A DNA stretch of 63,842 nt, counting the filler, from Craspedostauros australis (lineage: Eukaryota): NCBI GenBank assembly GCA_030167865.1. It is 10 parts of 10 records of this genome, joined end to end, with 100 filler letters (N's around TTAATTAATTAA, not from the genome) between each part and the next. Parts side by side here need not be neighbours in the genome. Positions count along the whole stretch, not along the records: positions 34,455 to 41,640 come from JALAGF010004184.1; 9 more parts are not named here. One strand, given 5' to 3'. The first letter of the stretch is position 1. Each line of letters begins with the position of its first letter. Positions 3,403 to 48,926 of this stretch are shown here, piece by piece. The position numbers and the translations under genes are program-made. The notes beneath the pieces were generated by a model that was not told the origin of the DNA, did not search any database, and was given only the letters and a program-made list of their open reading frames with translations.

Positions 3403-3502
3403 NNNNNNNNNNNNNNNNNNNNNNNNNNNNNNNNNNNNNNNNNNNNTTAATTAATTAANNNNNNNNNNNNNNNNNNNNNNNNNNNNNNNNNNNNNNNNNN
3501 NN
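3403..3502. other. Artificial contig spacer (44 N + TTAATTAATTAA + 44 N); repeated at 22549-22648, 31038-31137, 34355-34454, 41641-41740, 48927-49026, 55778-55877, 58306-58405 and 62577-62676
   Basis: The same 100-nt structure occurs nine times, and the 12-mer puts stops in all six frames. Confidence 0.97.
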
Positions 3503-22527: not shown

Positions 22528-23125
22528 TATGAGGAACATCCAGGAAGCNNNNNNNNNNNNNNNNNNNNNNNNNNNNNNNNNNNNNNNNNNNNTTAATTAA
22601 TTAANNNNNNNNNNNNNNNNNNNNNNNNNNNNNNNNNNNNNNNNNNNNTGGTGCTTTCGCTTTCTGCTGGTTAGTTGTTGACCTTTACCATGTAGGATGT
22701 CTATTTCACTGGTCCCATGTCTGTCTGGTGGGATTGGACTCTCGGAGTCTTGTGTCTGCATACACGATCATCGTGGAAACGTGTTCCTCTTCGTGACGCT
22801 TCAAGTGTGAATCAACAAGACTCAATGATCCTCACACGGTCTGTCAATCTGTCCTTCGCGCGCGAAATTGAGCAACAACCACCAAAACTGCGTGGAAGGA
22901 AACAAATACCGGGACATGAAAAGGAGAGAAGTCCAACCAACAACACCATTCAGTCCTGTTCTGTTCGTCGTCGCATTGATACGAGTGATGAATGGCACCG
23001 TTAGCAACGAACCTCCACAAGTACAACAAGCACCACCAGCAGTAGATGCATTGTGACCAATACTACAAGAACCGGGGTAAGAGACAATACACTATGCTCT
23101 AGAGTACTCCACGGAGAACGGCATC

Positions 23126-26800: not shown

Positions 26801-27758
26801 GATCTCCGAAAGCCAAGATTGGAATATCTGGAAGTTGGCGCAGATGGTGCTGGTACGACAAAGATACAGGCTCACGGTGGCGATGAAAGCGCGAGGATTG
26901 TGGATATCGACATGCACATGCACAGGAAGATGGAGTCTGGCACAGCCGGTGTTGTGCGGCGAAGGCATGCAGACCCGAAGTCGCACATGATTGCAGATGG
27001 TGTCGATCGTGATGGCCGACGACATCAAGGGGTCCGTCAAAGGTACCGGAATCAGGAGAGAAGGTGACGCTTCGGAGATTTTCAGCCAGACCAACATCAA
27101 GACCCATGCCAGAAGCGACGGGGATAGAGGATGACGTATCGGTCTTGACAGATGGATCAGAATCATGAGTCGTTGCATCGCTGAAGTGTATCGTACATAC
27201 GGTACGAGTAGTAGTCTGCACATTGGTGTCATTGCATCTCCCACATACCATATTCTCTAGTCGTACGTACGACCGTAAACAGAACAGAAGTGCATGGTCA
27301 CATGCATTCGTGAAGGTGTCATACCAGTAGCTCGTATGGTACGAGTATGATGTAGACCGTAGAGCAGAACAGAGGTCATGTTCACTGATGCGGTGATGTC
27401 ACTCATCCGACGGTTGTCATGGTGTTGATGTGCATCGGAAGCGAATCCACGATCAAGGGGACACAGACATGGAGAGGGATCGAGAAAGAAGGACACAGAG
27501 AGAAACCTCGTGTGACACAACGATCCAGCCCAGCGTCGAAAGATTCGGTCTGTCGCAAACTCCATCGTGTTCGCCACTCCCAAAACACAGACACAGGCCC
27601 CTCACTCTCTGCGTGATGCCTCTCGTTCCCACAAAGTCTGCAACACACACAAACTCACAACCATTATATTACCACGATAAGAATAGCAGCACATTGTACG
27701 AGTAATAATCTCACCACAACACAGAAGCACCAGCAGCAGCAAGAACAACATCAACAAC

Positions 27759-28934
27759 ATGTGGCCTCTGACAGGCAAGCGATTCCTCGTCTCCTTCCTG
27801 GCGCTGGCCAATGGAGCGGCACAAGGGTCCTCCACCACACCGGAAGCAAATGCTGTGAACAGCAACGCCAATCTCAAGTGCGATTGCTGTTGTCGAAGCA
27901 ACAGCACACACCTCGCATGGATCGTTGAACCGCCGAGCAACGATCTACGCGCTCCATGCGACGAGGATTCGCTCCGGCTTGGCCGTTCCGAACGTCGCGG
28001 CCTATCTGCGGCGAATGGCGCCAATCCAACTGACACCCCGTGCTGCACGTGGCAAACGCGAGACGAGGCGCAGCAGGAGGCTTTGGAATTCCTTCGCAAC
28101 CACGTCATGGAATTTGACCAAGCGTTCTTGCACACCTTGGGATTTCCCGTTGAAGACAATCGCAGCAATGGCACGGACGGGCTGGATGATGGATTGGTGG
28201 GACCGACCATCCAACTGGCGCTGGATGCCAAGGTGATGTACCCATGGACGGATGCATTGTCCAAGTCCACCTTCTTCAACTACGTGCTGAATTATGCCAA
28301 TCTGAACGAAGCGCGCACCAACTGGCGTCCGCTGTTGGTGGACGTGCTCAATGTGACGCAGGCGGAACTGTGGAAGGAGTACGTCGCCACCGGAAACTGG
28401 AATGTGACATCGGTCGTGAAATGGGTCAATACCGTTGTTTGGGACCGATTGGGAAGGAACGGCCAGCCCATCCGATTCGTCAGCGGCCAAACACCGCTCA
28501 TCTTCGATCCCATGTCCGTGATCGCGTTCGGGTACTCGTCCTGCACGGGGACGGCCATCCTCTTCACCAACGCGCTGCGGGCAGTCGGCATCCCAGCCAG
28601 AGTTGCGGGAACGGCGGCATGGTACGGCGATGCGTCGAAGGGAAATCACAATTGGGTGGAAGTATACGATTCCGCCAAGGACGAATGGGGCTTCTTGGAG
28701 CCAGCACCAAATACACCAGGCACCGTGGAGAGCTTGGAAAGCAACCCCTGCGGTCGATGGTACTGCTCGCCGGACCGGTACCCGTCGTCCACCGTCTTTG
28801 CGGCCAAGCTGTCACAAGAAGACGACTGCTGCTGCGACAAGCACCATTTCCCGCTCGCATGGGAGCCTGGGTGCGAGGACGTGCCAGCAGACGATCGCAC
28901 CAAGTACTACACCGACGTGTGCTCGCAGTGCTGA
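27759..28934 (+). CDS. Secreted transglutaminase-like (papain-fold) protein
   Basis: N-terminal signal peptide; core SCTGTAILFTNALRAVGIPARVAGT..W..GNHNWVEVY..WGFLE; Cys-rich termini. Confidence 0.85.
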   Translation: MWPLTGKRFLVSFLALANGAAQGSSTTPEANAVNSNANLKCDCCCRSNSTHLAWIVEPPSNDLRAPCDEDSLRLGRSERRGLSAANGANPTDTPCCTWQTRDEAQQEALEFLRNHVMEFDQAFLHTLGFPVEDNRSNGTDGLDDGLVGPTIQLALDAKVMYPWTDALSKSTFFNYVLNYANLNEARTNWRPLLVDVLNVTQAELWKEYVATGNWNVTSVVKWVNTVVWDRLGRNGQPIRFVSGQTPLIFDPMSVIAFGYSSCTGTAILFTNALRAVGIPARVAGTAAWYGDASKGNHNWVEVYDSAKDEWGFLEPAPNTPGTVESLESNPCGRWYCSPDRYPSSTVFAAKLSQEDDCCCDKHHFPLAWEPGCEDVPADDRTKYYTDVCSQC

Positions 28935-34354: not shown

Positions 34355-34615
34355 NNNNNNNNNNNNNNNNNNNNNNNNNNNNNNNNNNNNNNNNNNNNTT
34401 AATTAATTAANNNNNNNNNNNNNNNNNNNNNNNNNNNNNNNNNNNNNNNNNNNNCAGCGACGATCGAATCACCCACAATTTGGAAAAGACAACAGAATTG
34501 TCACACCTCCGCTTCGACGTACGCTTCCTTCAACGCTTGCTCAGGGGTAACCTAGCAGCCTTTAAACGAACACAACACTCTTCCACATCACCTTCGCCGT
34601 CTTCTCGCCATCACC

Positions 34616-36913
34616 ATGTCTCTCAACCTCTCTCATCTCCTCGCCTCCGAGCCTTCCTCCCGCACCGAAACCGCTGCCGGAGCTCGCCCCGACGATCTCA
34701 TCGAGGGTCTCACCGCCGTCTCCTCCATGGCCAGCCGCTCCTCTGCCTCGGGAGGCATCGCCGATGACTCCCTCCCCGCCAGCATGAGCTTGGGTACCAC
34801 CATCGGACACGTCCACGCCACGCAAGACACATGCCTCGTCCGGCTCAGCGCCAAATCCGAGGAGGGGCACGTCCTCCTCTGTGGTGATCCCGTCGACACC
34901 TGCAGCCGTCGTAACCACAGCCATCTACGGTCTGATCCGGCTCGCCGTGGTCTCCCTGGCGTATACCAGTGCATCGACATCACGACCAACAGGGGGATCG
35001 CTCGCCGCGATCTCGTCGAAGGCAGCTTCCAAAGCCCGGAAGCCTACGAAGCGACCCGCGCCGCCACCCTTCGGGACATGGCGCGCGTCGCAACGCGCGA
35101 CACCCCACCAGCTCACGATCGCAACGACTCCGATGCCCGGAGCGCCGGAGTGGTCGGATTCGACATGGACCGCAAGCCTGCAGCCCGCCGCGGCATCGAC
35201 GATGCGCCGACGCCATCTCTCCAGCGTAGGGAACACCTCGATGTGCCACCTCCGACAAGCCGCGTCCCTCCGGCACGCCTCCCCAAGCCAGCGCCACCAA
35301 CTACCAACCAAGAACGCCCTCAAGGAATCTCCGCTCCCGCGACACGCATGACCAACCCTTCTACCATCCCGGACTCCGTCCACTCCGCAGCGGACGAACT
35401 CATGCATGTGGTCCGCCACCAAGCCGCACTCAACCGTGAGACGATGGAAACCCATCAACGCAAGCTGGATCAGACGAACCAAACTCTGATCCAGGCGCTC
35501 GCCACCCAGCAGGAGCAAATCAACCATCTTCTCCGACTGGAAAGCGAGCGTCGGGAACAGGCAACCACAGAGCCGACCCCGCCTACAGCAGCGTGGTACG
35601 TGGTCACCCAAGGCGCTCGACCAGGAGTCTACACCTCCCGCGCGGAAGCCTACGGACATGCCGGAGGTCATCCGGACGCCAGCGTCCACTCCTTCAACAC
35701 CCACGTCGAGGCCGACAACTACTTGCGTGCTTCCATCACAACCGCACGTCACCGAAATCGTACATCATCGCCTTTGGACCCGCAGGTGGCCACGAATCTC
35801 CACCGCGCCCCGCCTCAAGCAAGCCGCGGATTCTCCGGAGCAGCGAATGCGCCAACCACAGCGGCGACAACTCCGACCCCCCCTGACATCAACAGCATGG
35901 GGGTTGAAGGATTCCTTGGAGAGGACACGTCTCGCGGAGACAAGAAGAGCATCTTCGGGGAAGGCATCGACAACGAGAGAAAGATGATCCAACACTTGGC
36001 CCCTCCTCATGCCAGCACCGAGGTGCAGACAGAATTAGCCAAGGCAGCCATCGACGTCACCAGCTTACCAGGTAAGGTCACCGACGAAAGAACATCGATT
36101 GAAGAGCTTGCCTCGGCCTTTGGAGACATCCGCAATCAGACAGCCCGTTCCGCCGGACTCATCGCCACCGACACCAACTGGAGAACCAAGACTCGGCACG
36201 CCCTCGCACGCGTCAAGAATGAGGAGGACCTCAGCGAACTCGCGGATGATTTCAACAGCATCCGCGATGACATCATGACCCAATACCTCAACAACGTGGG
36301 TCACATCCTCCGTCATGCCTACTACACCGACGAACAAGTGGCTATCTACCAACAAGGTGGAGGATGGGTCGCGGTGGTCAAACTCTTCCTCACGTATTAC
36401 CACGAACTCCTCCTCAAACTACAACAGGAAGCGTTCAAGACTCAAGACGGGTGGAGCGAATCGGCCAGCATCTACACGGAGTACTACTCCAAGGCCCTCT
36501 TCGACGCCCGCAACTTCGCGAGCTCTCGGAACCTGATGCTTTTCCGCACGTACGTCATTGTACGTGAGGGCGCCCGCATCGGATGGTGTAACATCAAGAT
36601 TCTGGAAAAATTCCAACACCGCATCTCAACCCTGAGCGGCGCTCCATCCACACACCATGAAGAGAACGACAGCTCTAACGCAGACTCGCACAAGAAACGG
36701 TGCAAGCACTGCAACGGAACCAGCAAGGTGCATGAGATCCGTGACAGCGGGTGTCCGTTCGGATACCTCTTTAAGAAGAAGGTGGCGATGGCCAAGGCCA
36801 AGCAGGTGATGAAGAGTGTGGGCCAAGGTGAAAAGGCCCACGATGTGATCACGCGTATTCTGCAGGAAGCCATTTCGAAGCGTGGAGGAGGAGATGATGA
36901 CGATGCTGCCTAA
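34616..36913 (+). CDS. YR-retrotransposon ORF1 (gag-like) with RNase H1 hybrid-binding (Cauli_VI-like) domain and CCHC knuckle
   Basis: WYVVTQGARPGVYTSRAEA..G..ASVHSFNTHVEADNYL at 35594-35725, preceded by a coiled coil; CKHC..H..C near the C-terminus. Confidence 0.88.
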   Translation: MSLNLSHLLASEPSSRTETAAGARPDDLIEGLTAVSSMASRSSASGGIADDSLPASMSLGTTIGHVHATQDTCLVRLSAKSEEGHVLLCGDPVDTCSRRNHSHLRSDPARRGLPGVYQCIDITTNRGIARRDLVEGSFQSPEAYEATRAATLRDMARVATRDTPPAHDRNDSDARSAGVVGFDMDRKPAARRGIDDAPTPSLQRREHLDVPPPTSRVPPARLPKPAPPTTNQERPQGISAPATRMTNPSTIPDSVHSAADELMHVVRHQAALNRETMETHQRKLDQTNQTLIQALATQQEQINHLLRLESERREQATTEPTPPTAAWYVVTQGARPGVYTSRAEAYGHAGGHPDASVHSFNTHVEADNYLRASITTARHRNRTSSPLDPQVATNLHRAPPQASRGFSGAANAPTTAATTPTPPDINSMGVEGFLGEDTSRGDKKSIFGEGIDNERKMIQHLAPPHASTEVQTELAKAAIDVTSLPGKVTDERTSIEELASAFGDIRNQTARSAGLIATDTNWRTKTRHALARVKNEEDLSELADDFNSIRDDIMTQYLNNVGHILRHAYYTDEQVAIYQQGGGWVAVVKLFLTYYHELLLKLQQEAFKTQDGWSESASIYTEYYSKALFDARNFASSRNLMLFRTYVIVREGARIGWCNIKILEKFQHRISTLSGAPSTHHEENDSSNADSHKKRCKHCNGTSKVHEIRDSGCPFGYLFKKKVAMAKAKQVMKSVGQGEKAHDVITRILQEAISKRGGGDDDDAA

Positions 36914-37041
36914 CCCCGCGTTTGGTTTGCTCCGTCACTCTCTTTGATGTCCACAAATCGCGCTCGATCGTACCAACAACAACAGACACACTCGGTGATA
37001 CCAAAGCTCCCATCCCACCAGACACCAGCTCAACCGCCCCC

Positions 37042-40000
37042 ATGGATGCTCAACTAAGCTCTAACTTAGATGACATTCTTGCATTATCCAGCCAACGGTT
37101 GCCAGAACCGCTCTCCTCTACCCTGCGATATGGCACACTGAACTTCGGTCTGCATATGACTTCGTCCGCCTGGCCGGCGTTCCAGCACATCTTCTGTGCC
37201 CACGACGACGGCCTTCCCATCAATTTGCGATCCTATCCCAAGACTACCCAGTATCTCGGGTCCACGGCGAGGCTATCGCATCGGGTGTTGAATCAACACC
37301 CGGTCGATTTCCTGGTCGTGTTTGGGATCAAGCAAATGGAATGGCGCAAATGGATCGGACGATGCTCATCCGGATCCAGACCATCCCTCATCCTCGAGAT
37401 ATGGACGGGACCAGCGGTATCCTGGATTCACGGGGCGGCCTCCAAGGGCGAATGCAAGCGGTGGGCGGACCTTGGCTACATCACGCAAGTCAAGACGATT
37501 CCCAACCTACGCGTGGGAGGCGTGGTACGAGTGTCCTACACGATGGTGGTACGATCGGCGACAACGTGGACGGCATCTGGCATCGCATGGCCAGACCTCC
37601 AACCCGCATCGGAACGAAGCATGGCGAATTGTCTTCGCCACTGTGGAATTCCACGACGATGTTATACAACACAGAGCAACGCTCAGATGGTCCATGACAG
37701 CGCGACATCCGCCATGCCATTGGACCGGCTGGCCCTGATTCAAACGGACCGCGGCATACGACGCCTCTTTCCAGACGAAGTGGGAAAAGCCCTGGGCAGC
37801 TCGCTCCCCGGCGAGGTCCTGCGACAGGTGAAATGGCGGGTGCTTTTCCACACACCGTCCCAACACCTGCTGGAGTACCTTTCCACCCCGCTGGTGGGTC
37901 TATCCAACCATCTCCATCAGCAACCTGAACACGACAACCTATCCTCAACCAGACGAACACGACGACGACGACGACAACGACAACGACCTGAGCCTACACC
38001 CCTCATGAAGACGAAATCCGACGACCGCGACTTCCAATGGACGCCCCCGGACCTATCTCCAGGGCAGCCGTGGCACCAGCAACGACTCCGCAACCTACGA
38101 CACGCATGCAATACGTATGGCGAGCGGGCCGAATCCCTTTTCCAAGGCGGACTACGGGACTTGGACATACACCGCACCAACTACACAGCCACACATCCGG
38201 ATCCCAAACACCTGCGGGTCCTCTGGTGGGAGTTCCCTGCGCACCACTGGGATCACCTACGCGAAGGAAGTCCCATGAATTTCCTACGAGAACCGACGCC
38301 AGGCAACCATCCCAACACCGACATGACTCCAGACCAACAACAGGTAGCGGCCGACTTCGTCGACGAGCTACTCAGCCTTGGTGTGGTGGAACCACAAGAC
38401 CCAAATCATCCGGTGGTGGTGAACGCACCTCTCTTTGCTTTACCGAAACCAATGCAGCCCGACCAATGGCGCATCATCGCCAACATGCGCGAAAATCACG
38501 CGAATGAGCACATTGGGTCGGATCCGACAATTTTTCCAAAAAGTCGCGATATTCTGAAGCAGATGTATCACGGAGGCTGGTCTGCGGTGGTCGATGCGTC
38601 GAAATACTTCTACCAATTTCGAACCCGGCCATCGGAGCGGCGTTTCCTCGGGATCCAACATCCGATCTCCGGTGAGATGTACCAATATGCTGGACTACCA
38701 ATGGGGTCTAGCCAGTCCCCAGCCATCGCATGCCGGTTTGGTACCGCCTTCCTCCGACAGCTGCGCCAGCGCTCCAAGCACTACCGAGGGTCCCACACAT
38801 CCAACATGTGGTGGTCTGCGTTCCGACTAGAGAAGGAATACGACCATACTCTGGGCCAAGGCATAGTCTCCATGGGGTCCGATGGTCTACCGGCAGCACT
38901 CGTGTGGGCTCACTGCGATGACTTTATCATCCACGGTCCAACACGACAGAAGACAGCAGCAGCACTCACGGCCTTCCTCGATCTCTCCGTCGACTGCGGG
39001 TTGCTCTGCCATCCGGGAAAACTCACCCCGCCAAGTCAGATCGTCAAATACACTGGCTTGATCTTCGACACTACCGCAACCCCGCGGCTACGGATCCCAA
39101 CCCTCAAGAGAGACAAGATCATAGCAGTCATGGACTACGTCGATGACCATGCTGTCAGAGTCTCCCGACTCGCCCTCGCGGTGCTCGCCGGTATGCTTGA
39201 AAGCGTCGCTGAGGCCACACCCTCGTATCTCGGCCGCAACTACCTCCGCGCGCTCTACCATCTCGTCCACCCCACTGCCTGGGATCAACCTGAGTTGCCT
39301 TACTTCAGCTACACGGCACTCGTCCCAGCCGTACAACACGACCTCCGCTGGTGGCGGGCAGCACTCCTCAACGACACGGCACGGAGCGGCCGGGCCACAC
39401 GTACAGGGGTCCTGGTCAGCAGCTTCGGCGATGGCAGCGGGACAGGGACCGGGGGTACTATCCTCTTCCCACAACAGGCTTCTCGCATGTGGATGGGGAC
39501 ATGGTCCTCTCTCGTCGCCACCCGCCAGTCGTCCAACTGGAAGGAGTTGCGGACCCTGCTCAGCACTCTCGAGCAGGTGGCGCAATCACCGGAGTCTACC
39601 GCAGAAGTCACCGGAGCAACCTTCTTTTACTTCACCGACAACATGTGTACCTACTGCGTCGTGGACGGCGGCACCTCCACTTCTCCGGAGCTCCACAAAT
39701 TGGTGCGACAGGTCAAGCAGCTCGAGTTACAGCTGTCCTGTCACCTACAGGTCATCCACATCCCGGGCACCGCCATCATCACTGAAGGAACCGACGGCCT
39801 TAGTCGGGGCATCTGGGTCAACGCCGCGCATCAACGGCCGACCTCGGAACAGATCCTCACCGCCTGCCTTGCACCAACAGCAGTACGGCCACTACATGTG
39901 CCCCATATCGCTCGGCTAGCGTTCCCGGAACAAACCATTGGCCTTCAGCTACGGGCATGGGACACTCCATGGGACCCAGAGCAATGCATGGACTGCATCA

Positions 40001-40338
40001 CGCTCTGGGCGCCCCCACCCGAGTTGGCGTACCAACTTATCTACTTCCTGCTGGGATGCTGGGCTGAGCGGCCGCTTCATACAGGATTCGTCATCCTCGT
40101 CCCTCGCGTGCTCCAGCGCACCTTCACACGTCTGTCTCGTCATCTCATCAAGGTTGGCGTGTTCACCAACCACGATCTACACATCACCTCTCCCTCTCCT
40201 CTCAATATCCCTAACCTCCTCCTTCGTGTCTCTCCTCATACGCGCTCTCTCACTCCTCCTAGACTGGACACTACTCCCTATTCCTGGCTTCGGCGGCACC
40301 ACCAACGGATCGCCGAACAACTGCACGGGCTGTGCTAG
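37042..40338 (+). CDS. YR-retrotransposon ORF2: degenerate C5-methyltransferase-like domain, RT, RNase H, DIRS MT-like domain
   Basis: First ATG at 37042. RT: PLFALPKP, WRIIANM, DASKYFYQF, LPMGSSQSP, HCDD, YTGL. RH: GDGSG, SSNWKEL, FTDN, TDGLSRG. C-terminal LWAPPPELA..ILVPR. Confidence 0.9.
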   Translation: MDAQLSSNLDDILALSSQRLPEPLSSTLRYGTLNFGLHMTSSAWPAFQHIFCAHDDGLPINLRSYPKTTQYLGSTARLSHRVLNQHPVDFLVVFGIKQMEWRKWIGRCSSGSRPSLILEIWTGPAVSWIHGAASKGECKRWADLGYITQVKTIPNLRVGGVVRVSYTMVVRSATTWTASGIAWPDLQPASERSMANCLRHCGIPRRCYTTQSNAQMVHDSATSAMPLDRLALIQTDRGIRRLFPDEVGKALGSSLPGEVLRQVKWRVLFHTPSQHLLEYLSTPLVGLSNHLHQQPEHDNLSSTRRTRRRRRQRQRPEPTPLMKTKSDDRDFQWTPPDLSPGQPWHQQRLRNLRHACNTYGERAESLFQGGLRDLDIHRTNYTATHPDPKHLRVLWWEFPAHHWDHLREGSPMNFLREPTPGNHPNTDMTPDQQQVAADFVDELLSLGVVEPQDPNHPVVVNAPLFALPKPMQPDQWRIIANMRENHANEHIGSDPTIFPKSRDILKQMYHGGWSAVVDASKYFYQFRTRPSERRFLGIQHPISGEMYQYAGLPMGSSQSPAIACRFGTAFLRQLRQRSKHYRGSHTSNMWWSAFRLEKEYDHTLGQGIVSMGSDGLPAALVWAHCDDFIIHGPTRQKTAAALTAFLDLSVDCGLLCHPGKLTPPSQIVKYTGLIFDTTATPRLRIPTLKRDKIIAVMDYVDDHAVRVSRLALAVLAGMLESVAEATPSYLGRNYLRALYHLVHPTAWDQPELPYFSYTALVPAVQHDLRWWRAALLNDTARSGRATRTGVLVSSFGDGSGTGTGGTILFPQQASRMWMGTWSSLVATRQSSNWKELRTLLSTLEQVAQSPESTAEVTGATFFYFTDNMCTYCVVDGGTSTSPELHKLVRQVKQLELQLSCHLQVIHIPGTAIITEGTDGLSRGIWVNAAHQRPTSEQILTACLAPTAVRPLHVPHIARLAFPEQTIGLQLRAWDTPWDPEQCMDCITLWAPPPELAYQLIYFLLGCWAERPLHTGFVILVPRVLQRTFTRLSRHLIKVGVFTNHDLHITSPSPLNIPNLLLRVSPHTRSLTPPRLDTTPYSWLRRHHQRIAEQLHGLC

Positions 40339-41640
40339 GCCTATCAACCGCCGCACAACCGCCCACCAATGTTGCTTCGCCGATGCTGGCTTCACGCACG
40401 GCGGGCTGCACTACCGGCCGTGCCACACTCGGTATCATAAGCTGTGCTGCCGGGTGGGTCCACCGTTCCACACCCGGCTGCGCAAAGGCAAGGGTCTCGC
40501 TCTACCGACCAACCTTGGGATCCTCGGGGTCTTCGTGTGCGAAGCATGCACAGTTCGCGTGCACACCAAGCGGGAGTTGACTTCCACGCCCACCGACGTC
40601 TACCTCCTTCGGCTCGAGCGGATGCGCATCATCGACCTGGCTCACAACTGGGCCACCGGCACCTTGGCTACTTACGGAAGCAAGATCCGCGTGCTGCGAC
40701 AGTTCGGCGCCGACTACGGAGTCCCCACCTTACAACCGCCGGTTCTCTCCAGCCCCCCCTACTCGGATTCTATCCCGATCATGTGGGCACAGGAGCACTA
40801 TGCAACTCAAACCCCCGCTCGGCGCAGTCGTCAGGACGTCAGCACCATCAAGTTCAGCACCGTACGAGGTTTGCGGAGTGCCGCCTCCGCTTTTTGGACA
40901 TGGAACATGTGTCACACNCAGCCCGACACAGCCATGATGGACGCCAAGCAACGGCCTATCGTCGTCAACGCATGCAGTCCCACCGACCACCTCGGCTACA
41001 CCATGCTTACTCAAGGCATGCGCGCACGCATGGGGGAGGATTCTCGGCCATCAGCGGCGCTGCTCGCACGTCATGTACAATTCATGGACCACAGCTTTCA
41101 GCAACAGTACCGCCACGCCGCGACCACACACCAACAGCGCACTGCCGCCATGGCCGCCATCATCAACCTGGTGGGCTGGCTCGGATGGCTCCGGGCATCC
41201 GAGGCTTTCGGCATCACCTGGGCGGACGTCACCCTTCTCCATCCACGCGACGCGGGCAACAACGATCTCCCCAACAACACGGGCGCAGTGTTGCTGCGCC
41301 TCGCGCTCCAAACCAAGTCCGACCGCAGCCGCCAGGCAGACGTCGTCGTGGCTTTCCGCACGGCATCAGGCCTGAGCCTCGGCGACTGGCTGCAGAGAGC
41401 GCATCGCCTCCGCGGTACACACAACGCTGCGGACTTCGTGGCTCAACACCCTTCCGGGCAACCGTGGACCTCCCAGTTCTACCGTGCCACGTTTGTGTAC
41501 CCGTCTTTGCTCGAGCAACAGGACCGCGGGGATCCCTTCCTGCGGTCTGCTATCGGAGCTCAACACATGCCAATCCCGACGAGGTTCAACTCTTTCCACA
41601 TGTATCGCCGAGGGGCGAGGACGCACGTATCTCGACGGCG
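39938..41640 (+). CDS. YR-retrotransposon ORF3: tyrosine recombinase with Cys-rich N-terminus, 3'-partial; true start uncertain
   Basis: WLGWLRASE (catalytic R), QTKSDR (K), FHMYRRG (HxxR). The catalytic Tyr lies beyond the contig end. Overlaps ORF2 in another frame. Confidence 0.88.
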
Positions 41641-41901
41641 NNNNNNNNNNNNNNNNNNNNNNNNNNNNNNNNNNNNNNNNNNNNTTAATTAATTAANNNN
41701 NNNNNNNNNNNNNNNNNNNNNNNNNNNNNNNNNNNNNNNNCAGCGACGATCGAATCACCCACAATTTGGAAAAGACAACAGAATTGTCACACCTCCGCTT
41801 CGACGTACGCTTCCTTCAACGCTTGCTCAGGGGTAACCTAGCAGCCTTTAAACGAACACAACACTCTTCCACATCACCTTCGCCGTCTTCTCGCCATCAC
41901 C

Positions 41902-44199
41902 ATGTCTCTCAACCTCTCTCATCTCCTCGCCTCCGAGCCTTCCTCCCGCACCGAAACCGCTGCCGGAGCTCGCCCCGACGATCTCATCGAGGGTCTCACC
42001 GCCGTCTCCTCCATGGCCAGCCGCTCCTCTGCCTCGGGAGGCATCGCCGATGACTCCCTCCCCGCCAGCATGAGCTTGGGTACCACCATCGGACACGTCC
42101 ACGCCACGCAAGACACATGCCTCGTCCGGCTCAGCGCCAAATCCGAGGAGGGGCACGTCCTCCTCTGTGGTGATCCCGTCGACACCTGCAGCCGTCGTAA
42201 CCACAGCCATCTACGGTCTGATCCGGCTCGCCGTGGTCTCCCTGGCGTATACCAGTGCATCGACATCACGACCAACAGGGGGATCGCTCGCCGCGATCTC
42301 GTCGAAGGCAGCTTCCAAAGCCCGGAAGCCTACGAAGCGACCCGCGCCGCCACCCTTCGGGACATGGCGCGCGTCGCAACGCGCGACACCCCACCAGCTC
42401 ACGATCGCAACGACTCCGATGCCCGGAGCGCCGGAGTGGTCGGATTCGACATGGACCGCAAGCCTGCAGCCCGCCGCGGCATCGACGATGCGCCGACGCC
42501 ATCTCTCCAGCGTAGGGAACACCTCGATGTGCCACCTCCGACAAGCCGCGTCCCTCCGGCACGCCTCCCCAAGCCAGCGCCACCAACTACCAACCAAGAA
42601 CGCCCTCAAGGAATCTCCGCTCCCGCGACACGCATGACCAACCCTTCTACCATCCCGGACTCCGTCCACTCCGCAGCGGACGAACTCATGCATGTGGTCC
42701 GCCACCAAGCCGCACTCAACCGTGAGACGATGGAAACCCATCAACGCAAGCTGGATCAGACGAACCAAACTCTGATCCAGGCGCTCGCCACCCAGCAGGA
42801 GCAAATCAACCATCTTCTCCGACTGGAAAGCGAGCGTCGGGAACAGGCAACCACAGAGCCGACCCCGCCTACAGCAGCGTGGTACGTGGTCACCCAAGGC
42901 GCTCGACCAGGAGTCTACACCTCCCGCGCGGAAGCCTACGGACATGCCGGAGGTCATCCGGACGCCAGCGTCCACTCCTTCAACACCCACGTCGAGGCCG
43001 ACAACTACTTGCGTGCTTCCATCACAACCGCACGTCACCGAAATCGTACATCATCGCCTTTGGACCCGCAGGTGGCCACGAATCTCCACCGCGCCCCGCC
43101 TCAAGCAAGCCGCGGATTCTCCGGAGCAGCGAATGCGCCAACCACAGCGGCGACAACTCCGACCCCCCCTGACATCAACAGCATGGGGGTTGAAGGATTC
43201 CTTGGAGAGGACACGTCTCGCGGAGACAAGAAGAGCATCTTCGGGGAAGGCATCGACAACGAGAGAAAGATGATCCAACACTTGGCCCCTCCTCATGCCA
43301 GCACCGAGGTGCAGACAGAATTAGCCAAGGCAGCCATCGACGTCACCAGCTTACCAGGTAAGGTCACCGACGAAAGAACATCGATTGAAGAGCTTGCCTC
43401 GGCCTTTGGAGACATCCGCAATCAGACAGCCCGTTCCGCCGGACTCATCGCCACCGACACCAACTGGAGAACCAAGACTCGGCACGCCCTCGCACGCGTC
43501 AAGAATGAGGAGGACCTCAGCGAACTCGCGGATGATTTCAACAGCATCCGCGATGACATCATGACCCAATACCTCAACAACGTGGGTCACATCCTCCGTC
43601 ATGCCTACTACACCGACGAACAAGTGGCTATCTACCAACAAGGTGGAGGATGGGTCGCGGTGGTCAAACTCTTCCTCACGTATTACCACGAACTCCTCCT
43701 CAAACTACAACAGGAAGCGTTCAAGACTCAAGACGGGTGGAGCGAATCGGCCAGCATCTACACGGAGTACTACTCCAAGGCCCTCTTCGACGCCCGCAAC
43801 TTCGCGAGCTCTCGGAACCTGATGCTTTTCCGCACGTACGTCATTGTACGTGAGGGCGCCCGCATCGGATGGTGTAACATCAAGATTCTGGAAAAATTCC
43901 AACACCGCATCTCAACCCTGAGCGGCGCTCCATCCACACACCATGAAGAGAACGACAGCTCTAACGCAGACTCGCACAAGAAACGGTGCAAGCACTGCAA
44001 CGGAACCAGCAAGGTGCATGAGATCCGTGACAGCGGGTGTCCGTTCGGATACCTCTTTAAGAAGAAGGTGGCGATGGCCAAGGCCAAGCAGGTGATGAAG
44101 AGTGTGGGCCAAGGTGAAAAGGCCCACGATGTGATCACGCGTATTCTGCAGGAAGCCATTTCGAAGCGTGGAGGAGGAGATGATGACGATGCTGCCTAA
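41902..44199 (+). CDS. YR-retrotransposon ORF1, copy 2
   Basis: Translation identical to 34616-36913. Confidence 0.88.
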   Translation: MSLNLSHLLASEPSSRTETAAGARPDDLIEGLTAVSSMASRSSASGGIADDSLPASMSLGTTIGHVHATQDTCLVRLSAKSEEGHVLLCGDPVDTCSRRNHSHLRSDPARRGLPGVYQCIDITTNRGIARRDLVEGSFQSPEAYEATRAATLRDMARVATRDTPPAHDRNDSDARSAGVVGFDMDRKPAARRGIDDAPTPSLQRREHLDVPPPTSRVPPARLPKPAPPTTNQERPQGISAPATRMTNPSTIPDSVHSAADELMHVVRHQAALNRETMETHQRKLDQTNQTLIQALATQQEQINHLLRLESERREQATTEPTPPTAAWYVVTQGARPGVYTSRAEAYGHAGGHPDASVHSFNTHVEADNYLRASITTARHRNRTSSPLDPQVATNLHRAPPQASRGFSGAANAPTTAATTPTPPDINSMGVEGFLGEDTSRGDKKSIFGEGIDNERKMIQHLAPPHASTEVQTELAKAAIDVTSLPGKVTDERTSIEELASAFGDIRNQTARSAGLIATDTNWRTKTRHALARVKNEEDLSELADDFNSIRDDIMTQYLNNVGHILRHAYYTDEQVAIYQQGGGWVAVVKLFLTYYHELLLKLQQEAFKTQDGWSESASIYTEYYSKALFDARNFASSRNLMLFRTYVIVREGARIGWCNIKILEKFQHRISTLSGAPSTHHEENDSSNADSHKKRCKHCNGTSKVHEIRDSGCPFGYLFKKKVAMAKAKQVMKSVGQGEKAHDVITRILQEAISKRGGGDDDDAA

Positions 44200-44327
44200 C
44201 CCCGCGTTTGGTTTGCTCCGTCACTCTCTTTGATGTCCACAAATCGCGCTCGATCGTACCAACAACAACAGACACACTCGGTGATACCAAAGCTCCCATC
44301 CCACCAGACACCAGCTCAACCGCCCCC

Positions 44328-47300
44328 ATGGATGCTCAACTAAGCTCTAACTTAGATGACATTCTTGCATTATCCAGCCAACGGTTGCCAGAACCGCTCT
44401 CCTCTACCCTGCGATATGGCACACTGAACTTCGGTCTGCATATGACTTCGTCCGCCTGGCCGGCGTTCCAGCACATCTTCTGTGCCCACGACGACGGCCT
44501 TCCCATCAATTTGCGATCCTATCCCAAGACTACCCAGTATCTCGGGTCCACGGCGAGGCTATCGCATCGGGTGTTGAATCAACACCCGGTCGATTTCCTG
44601 GTCGTGTTTGGGATCAAGCAAATGGAATGGCGCAAATGGATCGGACGATGCTCATCCGGATCCAGACCATCCCTCATCCTCGAGATATGGACGGGACCAG
44701 CGGTATCCTGGATTCACGGGGCGGCCTCCAAGGGCGAATGCAAGCGGTGGGCGGACCTTGGCTACATCACGCAAGTCAAGACGATTCCCAACCTACGCGT
44801 GGGAGGCGTGGTACGAGTGTCCTACACGATGGTGGTACGATCGGCGACAACGTGGACGGCATCTGGCATCGCATGGCCAGACCTCCAACCCGCATCGGAA
44901 CGAAGCATGGCGAATTGTCTTCGCCACTGTGGAATTCCACGACGATGTTATACAACACAGAGCAACGCTCAGATGGTCCATGACAGCGCGACATCCGCCA
45001 TGCCATTGGACCGGCTGGCCCTGATTCAAACGGACCGCGGCATACGACGCCTCTTTCCAGACGAAGTGGGAAAAGCCCTGGGCAGCTCGCTCCCCGGCGA
45101 GGTCCTGCGACAGGTGAAATGGCGGGTGCTTTTCCACACACCGTCCCAACACCTGCTGGAGTACCTTTCCACCCCGCTGGTGGGTCTATCCAACCATCTC
45201 CATCAGCAACCTGAACACGACAACCTATCCTCAACCAGACGAACACGACGACGACGACGACAACGACAACGACCTGAGCCTACACCCCTCATGAAGACGA
45301 AATCCGACGACCGCGACTTCCAATGGACGCCCCCGGACCTATCTCCAGGGCAGCCGTGGCACCAGCAACGACTCCGCAACCTACGACACGCATGCAATAC
45401 GTATGGCGAGCGGGCCGAATCCCTTTTCCAAGGCGGACTACGGGACTTGGACATACACCGCACCAACTACACAGCCACACATCCGGATCCCAAACACCTG
45501 CGGGTCCTCTGGTGGGAGTTCCCTGCGCACCACTGGGATCACCTACGCGAAGGAAGTCCCATGAATTTCCTACGAGAACCGACGCCAGGCAACCATCCCA
45601 ACACCGACATGACTCCAGACCAACAACAGGTAGCGGCCGACTTCGTCGACGAGCTACTCAGCCTTGGTGTGGTGGAACCACAAGACCCAAATCATCCGGT
45701 GGTGGTGAACGCACCTCTCTTTGCTTTACCGAAACCAATGCAGCCCGACCAATGGCGCATCATCGCCAACATGCGCGAAAATCACGCGAATGAGCACATT
45801 GGGTCGGATCCGACAATTTTTCCAAAAAGTCGCGATATTCTGAAGCAGATGTATCACGGAGGCTGGTCTGCGGTGGTCGATGCGTCGAAATACTTCTACC
45901 AATTTCGAACCCGGCCATCGGAGCGGCGTTTCCTCGGGATCCAACATCCGATCTCCGGTGAGATGTACCAATATGCTGGACTACCAATGGGGTCTAGCCA
46001 GTCCCCAGCCATCGCATGCCGGTTTGGTACCGCCTTCCTCCGACAGCTGCGCCAGCGCTCCAAGCACTACCGAGGGTCCCACACATCCAACATGTGGTGG
46101 TCTGCGTTCCGACTAGAGAAGGAATACGACCATACTCTGGGCCAAGGCATAGTCTCCATGGGGTCCGATGGTCTACCGGCAGCACTCGTGTGGGCTCACT
46201 GCGATGACTTTATCATCCACGGTCCAACACGACAGAAGACAGCAGCAGCACTCACGGCCTTCCTCGATCTCTCCGTCGACTGCGGGTTGCTCTGCCATCC
46301 GGGAAAACTCACCCCGCCAAGTCAGATCGTCAAATACACTGGCTTGATCTTCGACACTACCGCAACCCCGCGGCTACGGATCCCAACCCTCAAGAGAGAC
46401 AAGATCATAGCAGTCATGGACTACGTCGATGACCATGCTGTCAGAGTCTCCCGACTCGCCCTCGCGGTGCTCGCCGGTATGCTTGAAAGCGTCGCTGAGG
46501 CCACACCCTCGTATCTCGGCCGCAACTACCTCCGCGCGCTCTACCATCTCGTCCACCCCACTGCCTGGGATCAACCTGAGTTGCCTTACTTCAGCTACAC
46601 GGCACTCGTCCCAGCCGTACAACACGACCTCCGCTGGTGGCGGGCAGCACTCCTCAACGACACGGCACGGAGCGGCCGGGCCACACGTACAGGGGTCCTG
46701 GTCAGCAGCTTCGGCGATGGCAGCGGGACAGGGACCGGGGGTACTATCCTCTTCCCACAACAGGCTTCTCGCATGTGGATGGGGACATGGTCCTCTCTCG
46801 TCGCCACCCGCCAGTCGTCCAACTGGAAGGAGTTGCGGACCCTGCTCAGCACTCTCGAGCAGGTGGCGCAATCACCGGAGTCTACCGCAGAAGTCACCGG
46901 AGCAACCTTCTTTTACTTCACCGACAACATGTGTACCTACTGCGTCGTGGACGGCGGCACCTCCACTTCTCCGGAGCTCCACAAATTGGTGCGACAGGTC
47001 AAGCAGCTCGAGTTACAGCTGTCCTGTCACCTACAGGTCATCCACATCCCGGGCACCGCCATCATCACTGAAGGAACCGACGGCCTTAGTCGGGGCATCT
47101 GGGTCAACGCCGCGCATCAACGGCCGACCTCGGAACAGATCCTCACCGCCTGCCTTGCACCAACAGCAGTACGGCCACTACATGTGCCCCATATCGCTCG
47201 GCTAGCGTTCCCGGAACAAACCATTGGCCTTCAGCTACGGGCATGGGACACTCCATGGGACCCAGAGCAATGCATGGACTGCATCACGCTCTGGGCGCCC

Positions 47301-47624
47301 CCACCCGAGTTGGCGTACCAACTTATCTACTTCCTGCTGGGATGCTGGGCTGAGCGGCCGCTTCATACAGGATTCGTCATCCTCGTCCCTCGCGTGCTCC
47401 AGCGCACCTTCACACGTCTGTCTCGTCATCTCATCAAGGTTGGCGTGTTCACCAACCACGATCTACACATCACCTCTCCCTCTCCTCTCAATATCCCTAA
47501 CCTCCTCCTTCGTGTCTCTCCTCATACGCGCTCTCTCACTCCTCCTAGACTGGACACTACTCCCTATTCCTGGCTTCGGCGGCACCACCAACGGATCGCC
47601 GAACAACTGCACGGGCTGTGCTAG
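44328..47624 (+). CDS. YR-retrotransposon ORF2, copy 2
   Basis: Translation identical to 37042-40338. Confidence 0.9.
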   Translation: MDAQLSSNLDDILALSSQRLPEPLSSTLRYGTLNFGLHMTSSAWPAFQHIFCAHDDGLPINLRSYPKTTQYLGSTARLSHRVLNQHPVDFLVVFGIKQMEWRKWIGRCSSGSRPSLILEIWTGPAVSWIHGAASKGECKRWADLGYITQVKTIPNLRVGGVVRVSYTMVVRSATTWTASGIAWPDLQPASERSMANCLRHCGIPRRCYTTQSNAQMVHDSATSAMPLDRLALIQTDRGIRRLFPDEVGKALGSSLPGEVLRQVKWRVLFHTPSQHLLEYLSTPLVGLSNHLHQQPEHDNLSSTRRTRRRRRQRQRPEPTPLMKTKSDDRDFQWTPPDLSPGQPWHQQRLRNLRHACNTYGERAESLFQGGLRDLDIHRTNYTATHPDPKHLRVLWWEFPAHHWDHLREGSPMNFLREPTPGNHPNTDMTPDQQQVAADFVDELLSLGVVEPQDPNHPVVVNAPLFALPKPMQPDQWRIIANMRENHANEHIGSDPTIFPKSRDILKQMYHGGWSAVVDASKYFYQFRTRPSERRFLGIQHPISGEMYQYAGLPMGSSQSPAIACRFGTAFLRQLRQRSKHYRGSHTSNMWWSAFRLEKEYDHTLGQGIVSMGSDGLPAALVWAHCDDFIIHGPTRQKTAAALTAFLDLSVDCGLLCHPGKLTPPSQIVKYTGLIFDTTATPRLRIPTLKRDKIIAVMDYVDDHAVRVSRLALAVLAGMLESVAEATPSYLGRNYLRALYHLVHPTAWDQPELPYFSYTALVPAVQHDLRWWRAALLNDTARSGRATRTGVLVSSFGDGSGTGTGGTILFPQQASRMWMGTWSSLVATRQSSNWKELRTLLSTLEQVAQSPESTAEVTGATFFYFTDNMCTYCVVDGGTSTSPELHKLVRQVKQLELQLSCHLQVIHIPGTAIITEGTDGLSRGIWVNAAHQRPTSEQILTACLAPTAVRPLHVPHIARLAFPEQTIGLQLRAWDTPWDPEQCMDCITLWAPPPELAYQLIYFLLGCWAERPLHTGFVILVPRVLQRTFTRLSRHLIKVGVFTNHDLHITSPSPLNIPNLLLRVSPHTRSLTPPRLDTTPYSWLRRHHQRIAEQLHGLC

Positions 47625-48926
47625 GCCTATCAACCGCCGCACAACCGCCCACCAATGTTGCTTCGCCGATGCTGGCTTCACGCACGGCGGGCTGCACTAC
47701 CGGCCGTGCCACACTCGGTATCATAAGCTGTGCTGCCGGGTGGGTCCACCGTTCCACACCCGGCTGCGCAAAGGCAAGGGTCTCGCTCTACCGACCAACC
47801 TTGGGATCCTCGGGGTCTTCGTGTGCGAAGCATGCACAGTTCGCGTGCACACCAAGCGGGAGTTGACTTCCACGCCCACCGACGTCTACCTCCTTCGGCT
47901 CGAGCGGATGCGCATCATCGACCTGGCTCACAACTGGGCCACCGGCACCTTGGCTACTTACGGAAGCAAGATCCGCGTGCTGCGACAGTTCGGCGCCGAC
48001 TACGGAGTCCCCACCTTACAACCGCCGGTTCTCTCCAGCCCCCCCTACTCGGACTCTATCCCGATCATGTGGGCACAGGAGCACTATGCAACTCAAACCC
48101 CCGCTCGGCGCAGTCGTCAGGACGTCGGCACCATCAAGTTCAGCACCGTACGAGGTTTGCGGAGTGCCGCCTCCGCTTTTTGGACATGGAACATGTGTCA
48201 CACACAGCCCGACACAGCCATGATGGACGCCAAGCAACGGCCTATCGTCGTCAACGCATGCAGTCCCACCGACCACCTCGGCTACACCATGCTTACTCAA
48301 GGCATGCGCGCACGCATGGGGGAGGATTCTCGGCCATCAGCGGCGCTGCTCGCACGTCATGTACAATTCATGGACCACAGCTTTCAGCAACAGTACCGCC
48401 ACGCCGCGACCACACACCAACAGCGCACTGCCGCCATGGCCGCCATCATCAACCTGGTGGGCTGGCTCGGATGGCTCCGGGCATCCGAGGCTTTCGGCAT
48501 CACCTGGGCGGACGTCACCCTTCTCCATCCACGCGACGCGGGCAACAACGATCTCCCCAACAACACGGGCGCAGTGTTGCTGCGCCTCGCGCTCCAAACC
48601 AAGTCCGACCGCAGCCGCCAGGCAGACGTCGTCGTGGCTTTCCGCACGGCATCAGGCCTGAGCCTCGGCGACTGGCTGCAGAGAGCGCATCGCCTCCGCG
48701 GTACACACAACGCTGCGGACTTCGTGGCTCAACACCCTTCCGGGCAACCGTGGACCTCCCAGTTCTACCGTGCCACGTTTGTGTACCCGTCTTTGCTCGA
48801 GCAACAGGACCGCGGGGATCCCTTCCTGCGGTCTGCTATCGGAGCTCAACACATGCCAATCCCGACGAGGTTCAACTCTTTCCACATGTATCGCCGAGGG
48901 GCGAGGACGCACGTATCTCGACGGCG
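47224..48926 (+). CDS. YR-retrotransposon ORF3 tyrosine recombinase, copy 2, 3'-partial
   Basis: Same as copy 1 except one Ser/Gly change. Confidence 0.88.

Follow-up and report, generated by a model that had tools for sequence, protein, structure and literature searches.

We report here that a tyrosine-recombinase retroelement of Craspedostauros australis carries two candidate splice sites, a donor inside its gag-like ORF1 and an acceptor at the far end of ORF2, and that at the nucleotide level both are conserved, with matching phase, in distant relatives. Removal of the predicted intron (36072 to 40262) would fuse ORF1 residues 1-485 to the recombinase, and the conservation supports this prediction well enough that we regard it as probable. 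That splicing occurs, that the fusion protein is produced, and that its ORF1 part brings the recombinase to the nucleic acid of the element are points that we infer from this pattern.

The element and its reading frames

The window, the whole 63,842-nt stretch of DNA that was analysed, is a concatenation of unplaced contigs. Direct reading shows nine linkers of 100 nt with the form N44-TTAATTAATTAA-N44, three of which start at 34355, 41641 and 48927. Contig 1 (34455 to 41640, flanked by the linkers at 34355-34454 and 41641-41740) is a single truncated copy of the retroelement, and contig 2 (41741 to 48926) is a near-identical second copy, the sole other one within the window. Each contig is 7186 nt long, and the two differ by 2 substitutions and 1 N. 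A reading of the second copy as lying in tandem with the first is not supported: the window consists of contigs joined by linkers, and the two copies sit on separate contigs. The equivalent sites that the first-pass annotation gave for contig 2 (donor GT at 43358-43359, acceptor AG at 47547-47548) are identical to those of contig 1. All features described below lie on the plus strand.

The 7.2-kb contig holds a eukaryotic tyrosine-recombinase (DIRS-order) retroelement in truncated form. All three of its ORFs are intact on translation. The contig lacks the ends of the element, and a search for terminal repeats of at least 18 nt within it returned nothing beyond pairs of chance size. The gag-like ORF1 runs from its ATG to its stop at 34616 to 36913, as defined by translation, tblastn to the loci and alignment, and its C-terminal half, from about residue 450 of P0001, is conserved among the aligned relatives. 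ORF1 residues 327-369 (35594 to 35722) match Pfam Cauli_VI, an RNase H1-type hybrid-binding domain, at 28.9 bits (cut-off 21); of the lineages in the ORF1 alignment, only those of the window and L018 have it.

ORF2, which is conserved across the loci in tblastn searches, extends from its first ATG to its stop at 37042 to 40338, in a frame open from 36901. Residues 531-721 (about 38491-39063) are assigned as reverse transcriptase (RT) by a borderline pass of Pfam RVT_1 (30.0 bits against a gathering score of 29.6, E 5e-7). The AF2 model of residues 792-1116 (pLDDT 75.6) points to an RNase H domain after the RT (about 39397-39795), with a good match to the RNase H1 structure 3u3g (VIA-align Z 10.3, rmsd 3.5, 123 aligned residues), further VIA-align alignments with retroviral and CaMV RT RNase H domains, and a Foldseek E of 3e-3 (prob 1.00). 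A candidate adenine-methyltransferase-like domain follows at about 39871-40245. Model residues 200-324 (pLDDT >90) align with the N6-adenine methyltransferases PCIF1 (Z 7.5) and KsgA (7.1), and the same region with METTL5 (6.6), ErmC (6.6) and E. coli Dam (6.0), although values in this range of 6.0-7.5, below 8, may mean merely a common arrangement. The domain has a conserved W-x-P-P-P-E motif, which we take to resemble the (D/N)PP(Y/F/W) motif.

The recombinase frame, ORF3, supplies the predicted exon 2 (40263 to 41640, continuing off the contig end), which is defined by translation, AF2 and Foldseek and encodes a W-T-L-L-P motif together with a Cys-rich domain, which starts at 40322, and a catalytic fold like that of Cre. 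A Pfam search of the element proteins gave no integrase or protease match, and the Phage_integrase model misses the recombinase. The family is invisible to sequence searches alone, and its fold was assigned through the structure model (pLDDT 88.8), for which the top Foldseek matches are Cre, XerH, lambda Int and Tn1549 Int (E 4e-5, prob 1.00, about 350 columns). The R, K and H-x-x-R columns are conserved in the alignment. As judged from the modelled fold, a tyrosine recombinase replaces the DDE integrase in this element. The catalytic Tyr is absent from the window because the contig end cuts ORF3 right after the H-x-x-R box; the relatives have nearly invariant H, R-W and Y columns past this point.

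Conservation of the predicted splice sites

Conservation was assessed in 80 metagenomic relatives, with acceptor counts taken on 44 non-redundant loci that could be anchored. The sites are conserved among relatives of 35-50% protein identity, and the counts are not fully independent because lineages share descent. Public protein sets contain 913 HMMER matches to the clade at E <= 1e-3.

The acceptor (TAG|AC, phase 1, AG at 40261-40262) lies where the first-pass annotation had placed it, behind the AG-less pyrimidine tract that it had also described. This tract (40153 to 40260), which overlaps the last conserved ORF2 codons, is 108 nt long and the longest AG-free stretch of the contig, with 75% pyrimidine against 53% for the whole contig and 83% in 40190-40260. 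In 44 of 44 anchored loci a phase-1 AG precedes the invariant W codon of the G-W-T motif by no more than 24 nt, at exactly the position seen in the window (-3 nt) in 28 and shifted by whole codons in the other 16. The base at -3 of the acceptor is C in 25 loci, T in 15, A in 4 and G in none. As a control, the same test at three other conserved W codons found an AG in 20/38, 10/38 and 15/28. The pyrimidine-rich tract is likewise a family-wide trend. Pyrimidine content in the relatives is 0.69-0.72 across the 70 nt upstream of the acceptor against about 0.55 elsewhere, and the 45 nt upstream are free of AG in 29/44 loci compared with 10% of 584 control windows. The bias extends to the third codon positions of ORF2, which are 73% pyrimidine in the tract against 54% in the ORF2 body, an excess present in 36 of 39 loci. 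The proposed branch point is a weaker feature: CTAAC is present at 40211-40215, but it does not stand as a conserved signal, since strict CTRAY is not enriched near the acceptor (5/44 loci against 17.5% of control windows); the loose form YTNAY occurs there in 41/44 loci against 63% of controls.

Codon-position entropy shows ORF2-frame constraint upstream of the acceptor, with ORF3-frame constraint starting exactly at the G/D-W codon. In L033, L053 and L016/L060, stops in the ORF3 frame persist down to 3-6 codons upstream of G-W, and therefore the junction must lie right there.

The near-consensus donor CAG|GTAAGG (36069 to 36077, GT at 36072-36073, phase 1) is present as first described, within the codons of a conserved L-P-G motif. 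On the plus strand of the 7186-nt contig CAGGTAAG occurs nowhere else, and neither does AGGTRAG; the site ranks top among the 82 GTs of ORF1 under a rough donor matrix set by hand from a donor consensus. The pattern CCA-G|GT-NNG recurs at the ORF1 motif D-[VA]-x-x-L-P-G in nine lineages (the window, L003, L008, L010, L019, L011/L033/L036, L018, L057 and L015), where it ranks 1st to 3rd of 82-154 GTs per ORF1. The residue following the G of L-P-G is variable, but the +5 G is retained along with G|GT, and the joint codon chance of such a donor, given each lineage's own codon usage, is 0.4-2.3% per lineage. The earlier judgement that the acceptor is the better-supported half is accordingly borne out for the acceptor itself but not for the donor as the weaker half, as this too is conserved.

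Five further lineages beyond these nine have a strong phase-1 donor near the motif. L048 and L049 carry a phase-1 AAG|GTACGT three codons downstream of L-P-G. L022, L039/L043 and L060 are without a GT at the motif, and their top-scoring ORF1 donor, chosen after the fact, is in phase 1 and 17-54 codons upstream.

The two sites define a coding part of exon 1 at 34616 to 36071 (485.33 codons: ORF1 residues 1-485 and the first base of codon 486) and an intron of 4191 nt (3 x 1397) that takes in the remainder of ORF1 and every conserved part of ORF2. As had been claimed, ORF1 and ORF3 lie in the same frame, both codon starts being 2 mod 3. Removing 36072-40262 in silico does produce the anticipated in-frame fusion of ORF1 1-485 to the recombinase, open to the contig end, with the hybrid-binding domain inside exon 1. 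The same joining in 13 loci (12 lineages) with both sites in order gives frames that either span 886-1026 aa or reach the contig end without a stop; L033, a near-copy of L011 whose frame breaks later, gives 890 aa. In L015 and L018 no RT separates ORF1 from the recombinase, yet each retains both splice sites, around predicted introns of 1292 and 1268 nt. A repeat search of the spacer in L008, L010 and L011 found tandem repeats only. Read across the clade, a conserved phase-1 intron of 1.3-4.8 kb would enclose the whole pol gene.

Under the proposed mechanism, the full-length transcript would serve as both genomic RNA and ORF1 message, and the host spliceosome would process a share of the transcripts, removing 4191 nt between a donor within ORF1 codon 486 (G|GT at 36071|36072) and the acceptor at the far end of ORF2. 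The spliced message would begin at the ORF1 ATG and encode the N-terminal 485 residues, comprising a Cys/His motif, basic low-complexity stretches, the hybrid-binding domain and a conserved block ending in L-P, joined in frame to the AUG-less recombinase with its Cys-rich and Cre-like catalytic domains. The 3' splice-site signals would be encoded in the last conserved ORF2 codons through pyrimidine-rich codon choice, with ORF2 continuing past the acceptor for about 25 apparently unselected codons.

Other routes to the recombinase

Ty1 and Ty3 make their Gag-Pol fusions by a +1 programmed frameshift, and the present element resembles them in that its downstream enzyme frame is offset by +1 from the upstream one and briefly overlaps it. 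ORF3 is +1 to ORF2 and overlaps it in all tblastn loci with both frames, except L024, L036, L046 and L047, where the frame is shared. A programmed +1 frameshift within this overlap, giving an RT-RNase H-recombinase fusion, would fit the passage of selection from the ORF2 to the ORF3 frame at a single point. Four relatives (L024/P0056, L036, P0099 and P0130) have ORF2 and the recombinase in one frame; they would suit an ORF2-recombinase product and so count against the predicted splice, but the L024 and L036 fusions are 1-nt differences in C runs that put the conserved G-W-T out of frame. By eye, rather than by formal motif search, the loci have no shift heptamer in common immediately before G-W. 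They differ in the ORF2-frame codon that precedes the junction and share only the pyrimidine bias and the AG, and in L033, L053 and L016/L060 a shift would have just 3-6 codons of room after the last ORF3-frame stop. Nor would a frameshift predict a YAG that moves codon-wise, an AG-poor pyrimidine tract with its third-position bias, or a conserved donor 4 kb upstream, and in L015 and L018 there is no ORF2 from which to shift. The conserved splice signals and these RT-less relatives favour splicing, and we regard frameshifting as unlikely.

If the recombinase were translated on its own, from RNA that is unspliced or starts internally, an ATG would be used where available and a non-AUG start otherwise. 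An in-frame ATG upstream of the Cys-rich domain, at least 72 codons before the CExC motif, exists in 24/55 relatives, which also tells against the predicted splice, and in L002 the ATG directly follows an AG. However, 31/55 relatives have no in-frame ATG upstream of the first CxxC, and hence no usable one, and 17/55 loci have none before CExC. In the window the first in-frame ATG is confirmed at 40622, behind the entire conserved Cys-rich domain and preceded by out-of-frame ATGs at 40369, 40383 and 40546. The AG and the donor are conserved whereas the position of the ATG is not, leaving this route a slim chance. An equally slim one attaches to the possibility that a genuine acceptor is mostly joined to a different donor, for example one located in the 5' leader, in a missing part of the element or in trans, such that the product is not the ORF1(1-485) fusion. 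The ends of the element are absent from the contig, and the donors of L022, L039/L043 and L060 lie away from L-P-G; against this, nine lineages conserve the L-P-G donor at both synonymous and variable positions, its phase always suits the acceptor, and the plus strand of the contig has no other AGGTRAG. Splice-site matches are common in a single genome, and both window copies are unplaced repeat contigs, so functionless sites in decayed copies might resemble a splice by chance. We consider this very improbable given three intact ORFs, conservation at 35-50% protein identity, and the outcome of the acceptor and donor controls. Two further points weigh against the predicted splice: no fusion of the ORF1 N-terminal part with the recombinase is found among the best 150 of the 913 HMMER matches, and a 4.2-kb intron would be long for a small protist genome.

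Relation to known systems and implications

Avian sarcoma/leukosis virus joins the opening codons of gag to env by splicing. The predicted message would resemble retroviral env mRNA in that a single primary transcript acts as genome and as mRNA, splicing runs from a donor within or close to gag to an acceptor where pol ends, a downstream gene with an absent or poorly placed AUG is translated from the gag start, and the acceptor signals overlap pol coding sequence. It would differ in that the downstream gene encodes the integration enzyme rather than an envelope protein, that about 485 gag-like residues, over half of the protein, enter the fusion, and that it stems from a tyrosine-recombinase retroelement and not a retrovirus. 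This element shares with DIRS1-like and PAT-like elements a gag-like ORF, an ORF for RT and RNase H with a putative methyltransferase-like domain, and a recombinase ORF overlapping pol in a different frame, but its recombinase has an N-terminal Cys-rich domain and no Phage_integrase match. Features that would set DIRS1-like and PAT-like elements apart from Ngaro and VIPER are the methyltransferase-like domain behind the RNase H and terminal repeats that are either inverted, with an internal complementary region, or split and direct.

In rice tungro bacilliform virus, splicing of the pregenomic RNA fuses an upstream frame to the distal ORF IV and allows its translation (PMC5902531). This is likewise a splice-made in-frame fusion to a distal ORF, but there a short uORF of the leader supplies the upstream frame, and the P4 protein of this plant pararetrovirus is not a recombination or integration enzyme. 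Spliced subgenomic gag RNAs are described for the Ty1/Copia elements EVD of Arabidopsis (PMC5580714) and BARE of barley (PMC3735527). In these elements a conserved splice inside the retrotransposon transcript is reported to set the product ratio, and its family-wide conservation served as evidence, as here; that splice yields a short gag-only message, whereas the one predicted here would drop the gag C-terminal half and all of pol to express the recombinase.

The searched literature on tyrosine-recombinase retroelements describes no splice for recombinase expression, and notes of the frame only that it "can be frameshifted and overlap" (PMC3783388, PMC6681497). For one large clade, such a splice, if conserved, would be a concrete and testable answer to how an overlapping and often AUG-less recombinase is expressed. 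In practical terms, annotation of such elements calls for intron-aware gene models, because gene callers shorten the recombinase in the predicted proteins to internal Met, Val or Leu codons. We lean towards the broader view that a widespread DIRS-like clade of aquatic microbial eukaryotes independently evolved a retrovirus-style spliced subgenomic message, with the integration enzyme always made as a gag-like fusion. If so, subgenomic splicing would extend beyond retroviruses, pararetroviruses and LTR elements to another retroelement lineage. The predicted gag-recombinase fusion would carry N-terminal nucleic-acid-binding parts that could explain how the recombinase finds the cDNA. In the window lineage, the hybrid-binding domain would tether the recombinase to the RNA:DNA hybrid or cDNA, and such tethering could couple reverse transcription with recombination in this poorly understood order.

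Contigs and reading frames of the element

Nine identical 100-nt spacers ([N44]TTAATTAATTAA[N44]), at positions 3403, 22549, 31038, 34355, 41641, 48927, 55778, 58306 and 62577, divide the window, which is thus a chain of unplaced contigs. Adjacency across the spacers is therefore artificial, and this includes the apparent tandem of two element copies. The element under study lies in contig 34455-41640. Contig 41741-48926, also 7186 nt long, differs from it by two substitutions, both in the recombinase frame (T at 40768 against C at 48054, and A at 40841 against G at 48127), and by one N at 40918 of the former. These contigs are not a tandem pair but one repeat that was assembled separately twice. 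The predicted splice sites that the first-pass annotation assigned to a second copy (43358 and 47548) are present there; a tandem reading of copy 2 is not supported, as it is a separate contig, 41741-48926, beyond a spacer. No further copies of the element were found within the window at the DNA or protein level. Elsewhere the window carries another long RT-bearing frame (11492-17281, minus strand, RVT_1, 1930 aa) and, on the plus strand, a DEAD-box helicase (23081-24727), a transglutaminase-like protein (27687-28931) and a prolyl-tRNA synthetase (58865-60286).

Three long frames fill contig 34455-41640. ORF1 is gag-like, running from an ATG at 34616 to a stop at 36911-36913; its residues 327-369 carry a hybrid-binding domain (Pfam Cauli_VI / RNase H1 N-terminal). 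The open frame of ORF2 begins at 36901, its first ATG is at 37042 and its stop at 40336-40338, and it matches Pfam RVT_1 just over the gathering score. In a model of the final 325 conserved residues of ORF2 (pLDDT 75.6), an RNase H fold (Z 10.3) is followed by a confidently predicted domain whose alignment to N6-adenine methyltransferases (Z 6.0-7.5) is suggestive only. At 36901-37045 the -1 frame of ORF2 covers the last 13 nt of ORF1, stop codon included, and has its own ATG at 37042; the ORF1-to-ORF2 frame relation differs among relatives, most of which have their own ORF2 ATG. ORF3, which is +1 to ORF2 and open from 39920, contains no ATG until 40622 and is truncated where the contig stops, past an H-x-x-R box. 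Pfam and PDB profile searches detected no recombinase in ORF3 and its identity therefore needed fold comparison: a model built from 48 homologues (pLDDT 88.8) matched Cre, XerH, lambda integrase and the Tn1549 integrase in Foldseek (prob 1.00, E from 4e-5). A tblastn search against phage records gave no match, and an Atlas search, which provides leads only, pointed to DUF3504 and Phage_integrase clusters (0.87-0.91), the nearest clusters being without taxa.

The order gag-like, RT-RNase H-(methyltransferase-like), recombinase identifies a tyrosine-recombinase retroelement. It is a member of the DIRS order, with RT, RNase H and the recombinase fold all found and no catalytic Tyr within the contig. 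Terminal repeats were looked for without result in the window contig, which is without the element ends, and in the metagenome loci L008, L010 and L011. The end of the L008 contig (10222-10348) exactly repeats its 127-nt start (1-127), and L043 ends alike, which suggests a circular or tandem assembly in both. The L008 spacer between recombinase and ORF1 (59-339 and 9996-10341) carries 11-nt and 173-nt tandem repeats, and repeats of this type could be the reason that the window contigs break there.

The predicted acceptor among relatives

Relatives of the recombinase were collected from a word-indexed protein set (49 homologues at 33-50% identity), by HMMER (913 matches at E <= 1e-3 among 1.84 billion representatives) and from a scan of metagenome contigs, in which the best 80 of 87 loci were kept. 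Counting the window contig along with the 80 loci, 62 of 81 sources have the conserved CExC motif, preceded in 55 of these 62 by an open frame of 85 codons or more. A W-[TSH] anchor in 47 sources gave 44 clusters at 88% identity, although locus counts overstate independence because lineages share ancestry. The other 15 of the 62 were left out of the acceptor counts: L004, L012, L013, L020, L021, L044, L052 and L080 because the frame is interrupted or the sequence upstream too short; L024 and L036, in which ORF2 and ORF3 share a frame (a 1-nt C-run difference is seen just past the G-W-T motif); L045-L047, with a stop in place of the W codon and more frame breaks; and L057 and L064, with variant motifs, in both of which a phase-1 AG is present by eye. 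In L033 (7811-7858) and L036 (2803-2850) the recombinase match switches frame between query residues 494 and 506, which may reflect a small intron or a frameshift in that lineage.

The donor, the CTAAC, the AG and the first ORF3 ATG that the first-pass annotation listed for a predicted intron at 36072-40262 were each found where it had placed them. No AG-free stretch in the contig is longer than the 108 nt that precede the acceptor. In relatives, ORF3-frame conservation starts abruptly at the motif G/D-W-T/S-x-L-P-x-P, which begins at 40262 in the window. Downstream of this start, codon-position entropy is ~1.7-1.9 bits at ORF3 third positions vs 0-0.8 at the other two; upstream of it, ORF2 third positions are the ones that vary. 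The nearest ORF3-frame stops are only 3-6 codons from the motif in L033, L053 and L016/L060. This switch of constraint and the nearby stops imply that whatever joins a start to the recombinase must act within a few codons of 40262.

The predicted acceptor is conserved: in each of the 44 non-redundant loci there is an AG in the phase seen in the window, its G opening an ORF3-frame codon. It lies at exactly the window's site in 28 and from one to seven whole codons further upstream in 16, and is preceded by C in 25, T in 15, A in 4 and G in none. Pyrimidines make up ~70% of the 70 nt upstream vs ~55% elsewhere, a bias that sits on ORF2 third codon positions, which are free to vary (73% vs 54%), and is raised in 36 of 39 loci. 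The preceding 45 nt hold no other AG in 29 of the 44 loci, compared with 10% of 584 control windows. A phase-1 AG occurs in 20/38, 10/38 and 15/28 loci at three further conserved W codons, where the tract is absent. In the ORF2 alignment the tract overlaps the last conserved residues (L-P-I-P-x-x-V-L-Y-L-x-P-H-x-R), and the ~25 ORF2 codons past the AG show no ORF2-frame constraint. The CTAAC proposed as branch point is not borne out as a conserved signal, a strict branch point being not enriched in relatives.

The predicted donor and the joined frame

The donor heptamer occurs once on the plus strand of the contig. The first half of ORF1 is poorly conserved in relatives, which become alignable from a block ending D-[VA]-x-x-L-P-G, and the window donor falls within the P-G codons of this block. 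Conservation of the donor is seen across lineages: CCA-G/GT-NNG is kept at L-P-G in the window, L003, L008, L010, L019, L011/L033/L036, L018, L057 and L015. The residue after the G is variously K, A, V, M, R or T and the third base of its codon, the +5 G of the donor, is constant. From the codon usage of each lineage the chance of the donor codon combination is 0.4-2.3%, and by a rough hand-set consensus matrix the site ranks first to third of the 82-154 GTs in each ORF1. L048 and L049 instead have a phase-1 AAG/GTACGT three codons downstream of the motif. In L022, L039/L043 and L060 the motif contains no GT, and the best ORF1 donors, chosen after the fact, are in phase 1 and 17-54 codons upstream.

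In the 13 loci from 12 lineages where donor and acceptor are both present in order, joining them in silico leaves a single frame that is open for 886-1026 residues or as far as the contig end. L033 is a close copy of L011 whose frame breaks further on, and its joined frame has 890 residues. In L015 (2-4014) and L018 (158-4299) no RT separates an ORF1-like gene from the recombinase downstream of it. Both have the L-P-G donor, the phase-1 AG and the pyrimidine tract, and the predicted introns measure 1292 and 1268 nt, respectively. These two loci may be non-autonomous derivatives. The hybrid-binding domain is also present in L018.

One RNA run under the same species label contained almost none of the element's sequence words and yielded a single 31-nt piece with no joints, so that the case for the splice is comparative. 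Protein searches returned no fused form. Longer recombinase forms were not found at E <= 0.001, which is weak evidence because a 967-aa homologue, P0056, exists and was missed by the same search. ORF1 residues 21-505 had no match among proteins of 431-1374 aa. Among the best 150 of the 913 HMMER hits, the 10 long proteins examined in which the match starts well inside included no ORF1 fusions, and are ORF2-frame or upstream-frame read-ins.

Routes to the recombinase and the proposed messages

A +1 frameshift from ORF2 into the recombinase frame would fit the constant +1 relation, the point at which constraint switches and the four ORF2-recombinase fusions that are in frame (L024/P0056, L036, P0099 and P0130). 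However, those of L024 and L036 are 1-nt C-run differences that throw the G-W-T motif out of frame, and may be dead copies or assembly errors. Nor does a frameshift predict the relocating YAG, the exclusion of AG, the third-position pyrimidine bias, the distant donor or the RT-less elements, and no shift heptamer common to relatives was seen by eye. Since L015 and L018 have no RT between the ORF1-like gene and the recombinase, there is no ORF2 in them for a ribosome to shift from. Independent initiation of the recombinase fails in the window, where the invariant Cys-rich domain precedes the first ATG, and likewise in 31 of 55 relatives, although the other 24 have an upstream ATG that might be used. 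Transcriptional slippage in the C runs after G-W-T was rejected because ORF3-frame selection is already present upstream of the runs. A short intron from ORF2 to the acceptor seems unlikely, the only phase-compatible GT close upstream (40130, CAC/GTCTGT) being, by eye, a poor donor.

With conservation at both of its sites, the predicted splice fusing ORF1 residues 1-485 to the recombinase is quite likely. The signals, their phase and their conservation are features of the sequence, from which we infer splicing, a fusion protein and a role for its N-terminal half. Such a splice would work like that of the retroviral env message.

The proposed recombinase message would also resemble the ORF IV message of rice tungro bacilliform virus, for which a splice joining an upstream frame to a distal ORF is described (PMC5902531), and the conserved splice of Ty1/Copia elements offers a parallel (PMC5580714). 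In the searchable literature (including PMC7192593, PMC4157794, PMC3266345, PMC3783388, PMC6681497, PMC3212892, PMC13465315 and PMC9940879), the sole remark found on this point in YR retroelements is that the recombinase can lie in a shifted, overlapping frame. A splice expressing the recombinase of a YR retroelement is undescribed within that literature, which does not take in the original Goodwin and Poulter papers (2001, 2004) or Poulter's later reviews.

Under the proposed splice, unspliced RNA would serve as both genome and ORF1 message, and spliced RNA, starting at the same ATG, would encode ORF1 residues 1-485 fused to the recombinase. The two products would share an N-terminal half with a Cys/His motif, basic stretches and, in the window lineage, the hybrid-binding domain, and this shared half may bring the recombinase to the cDNA.
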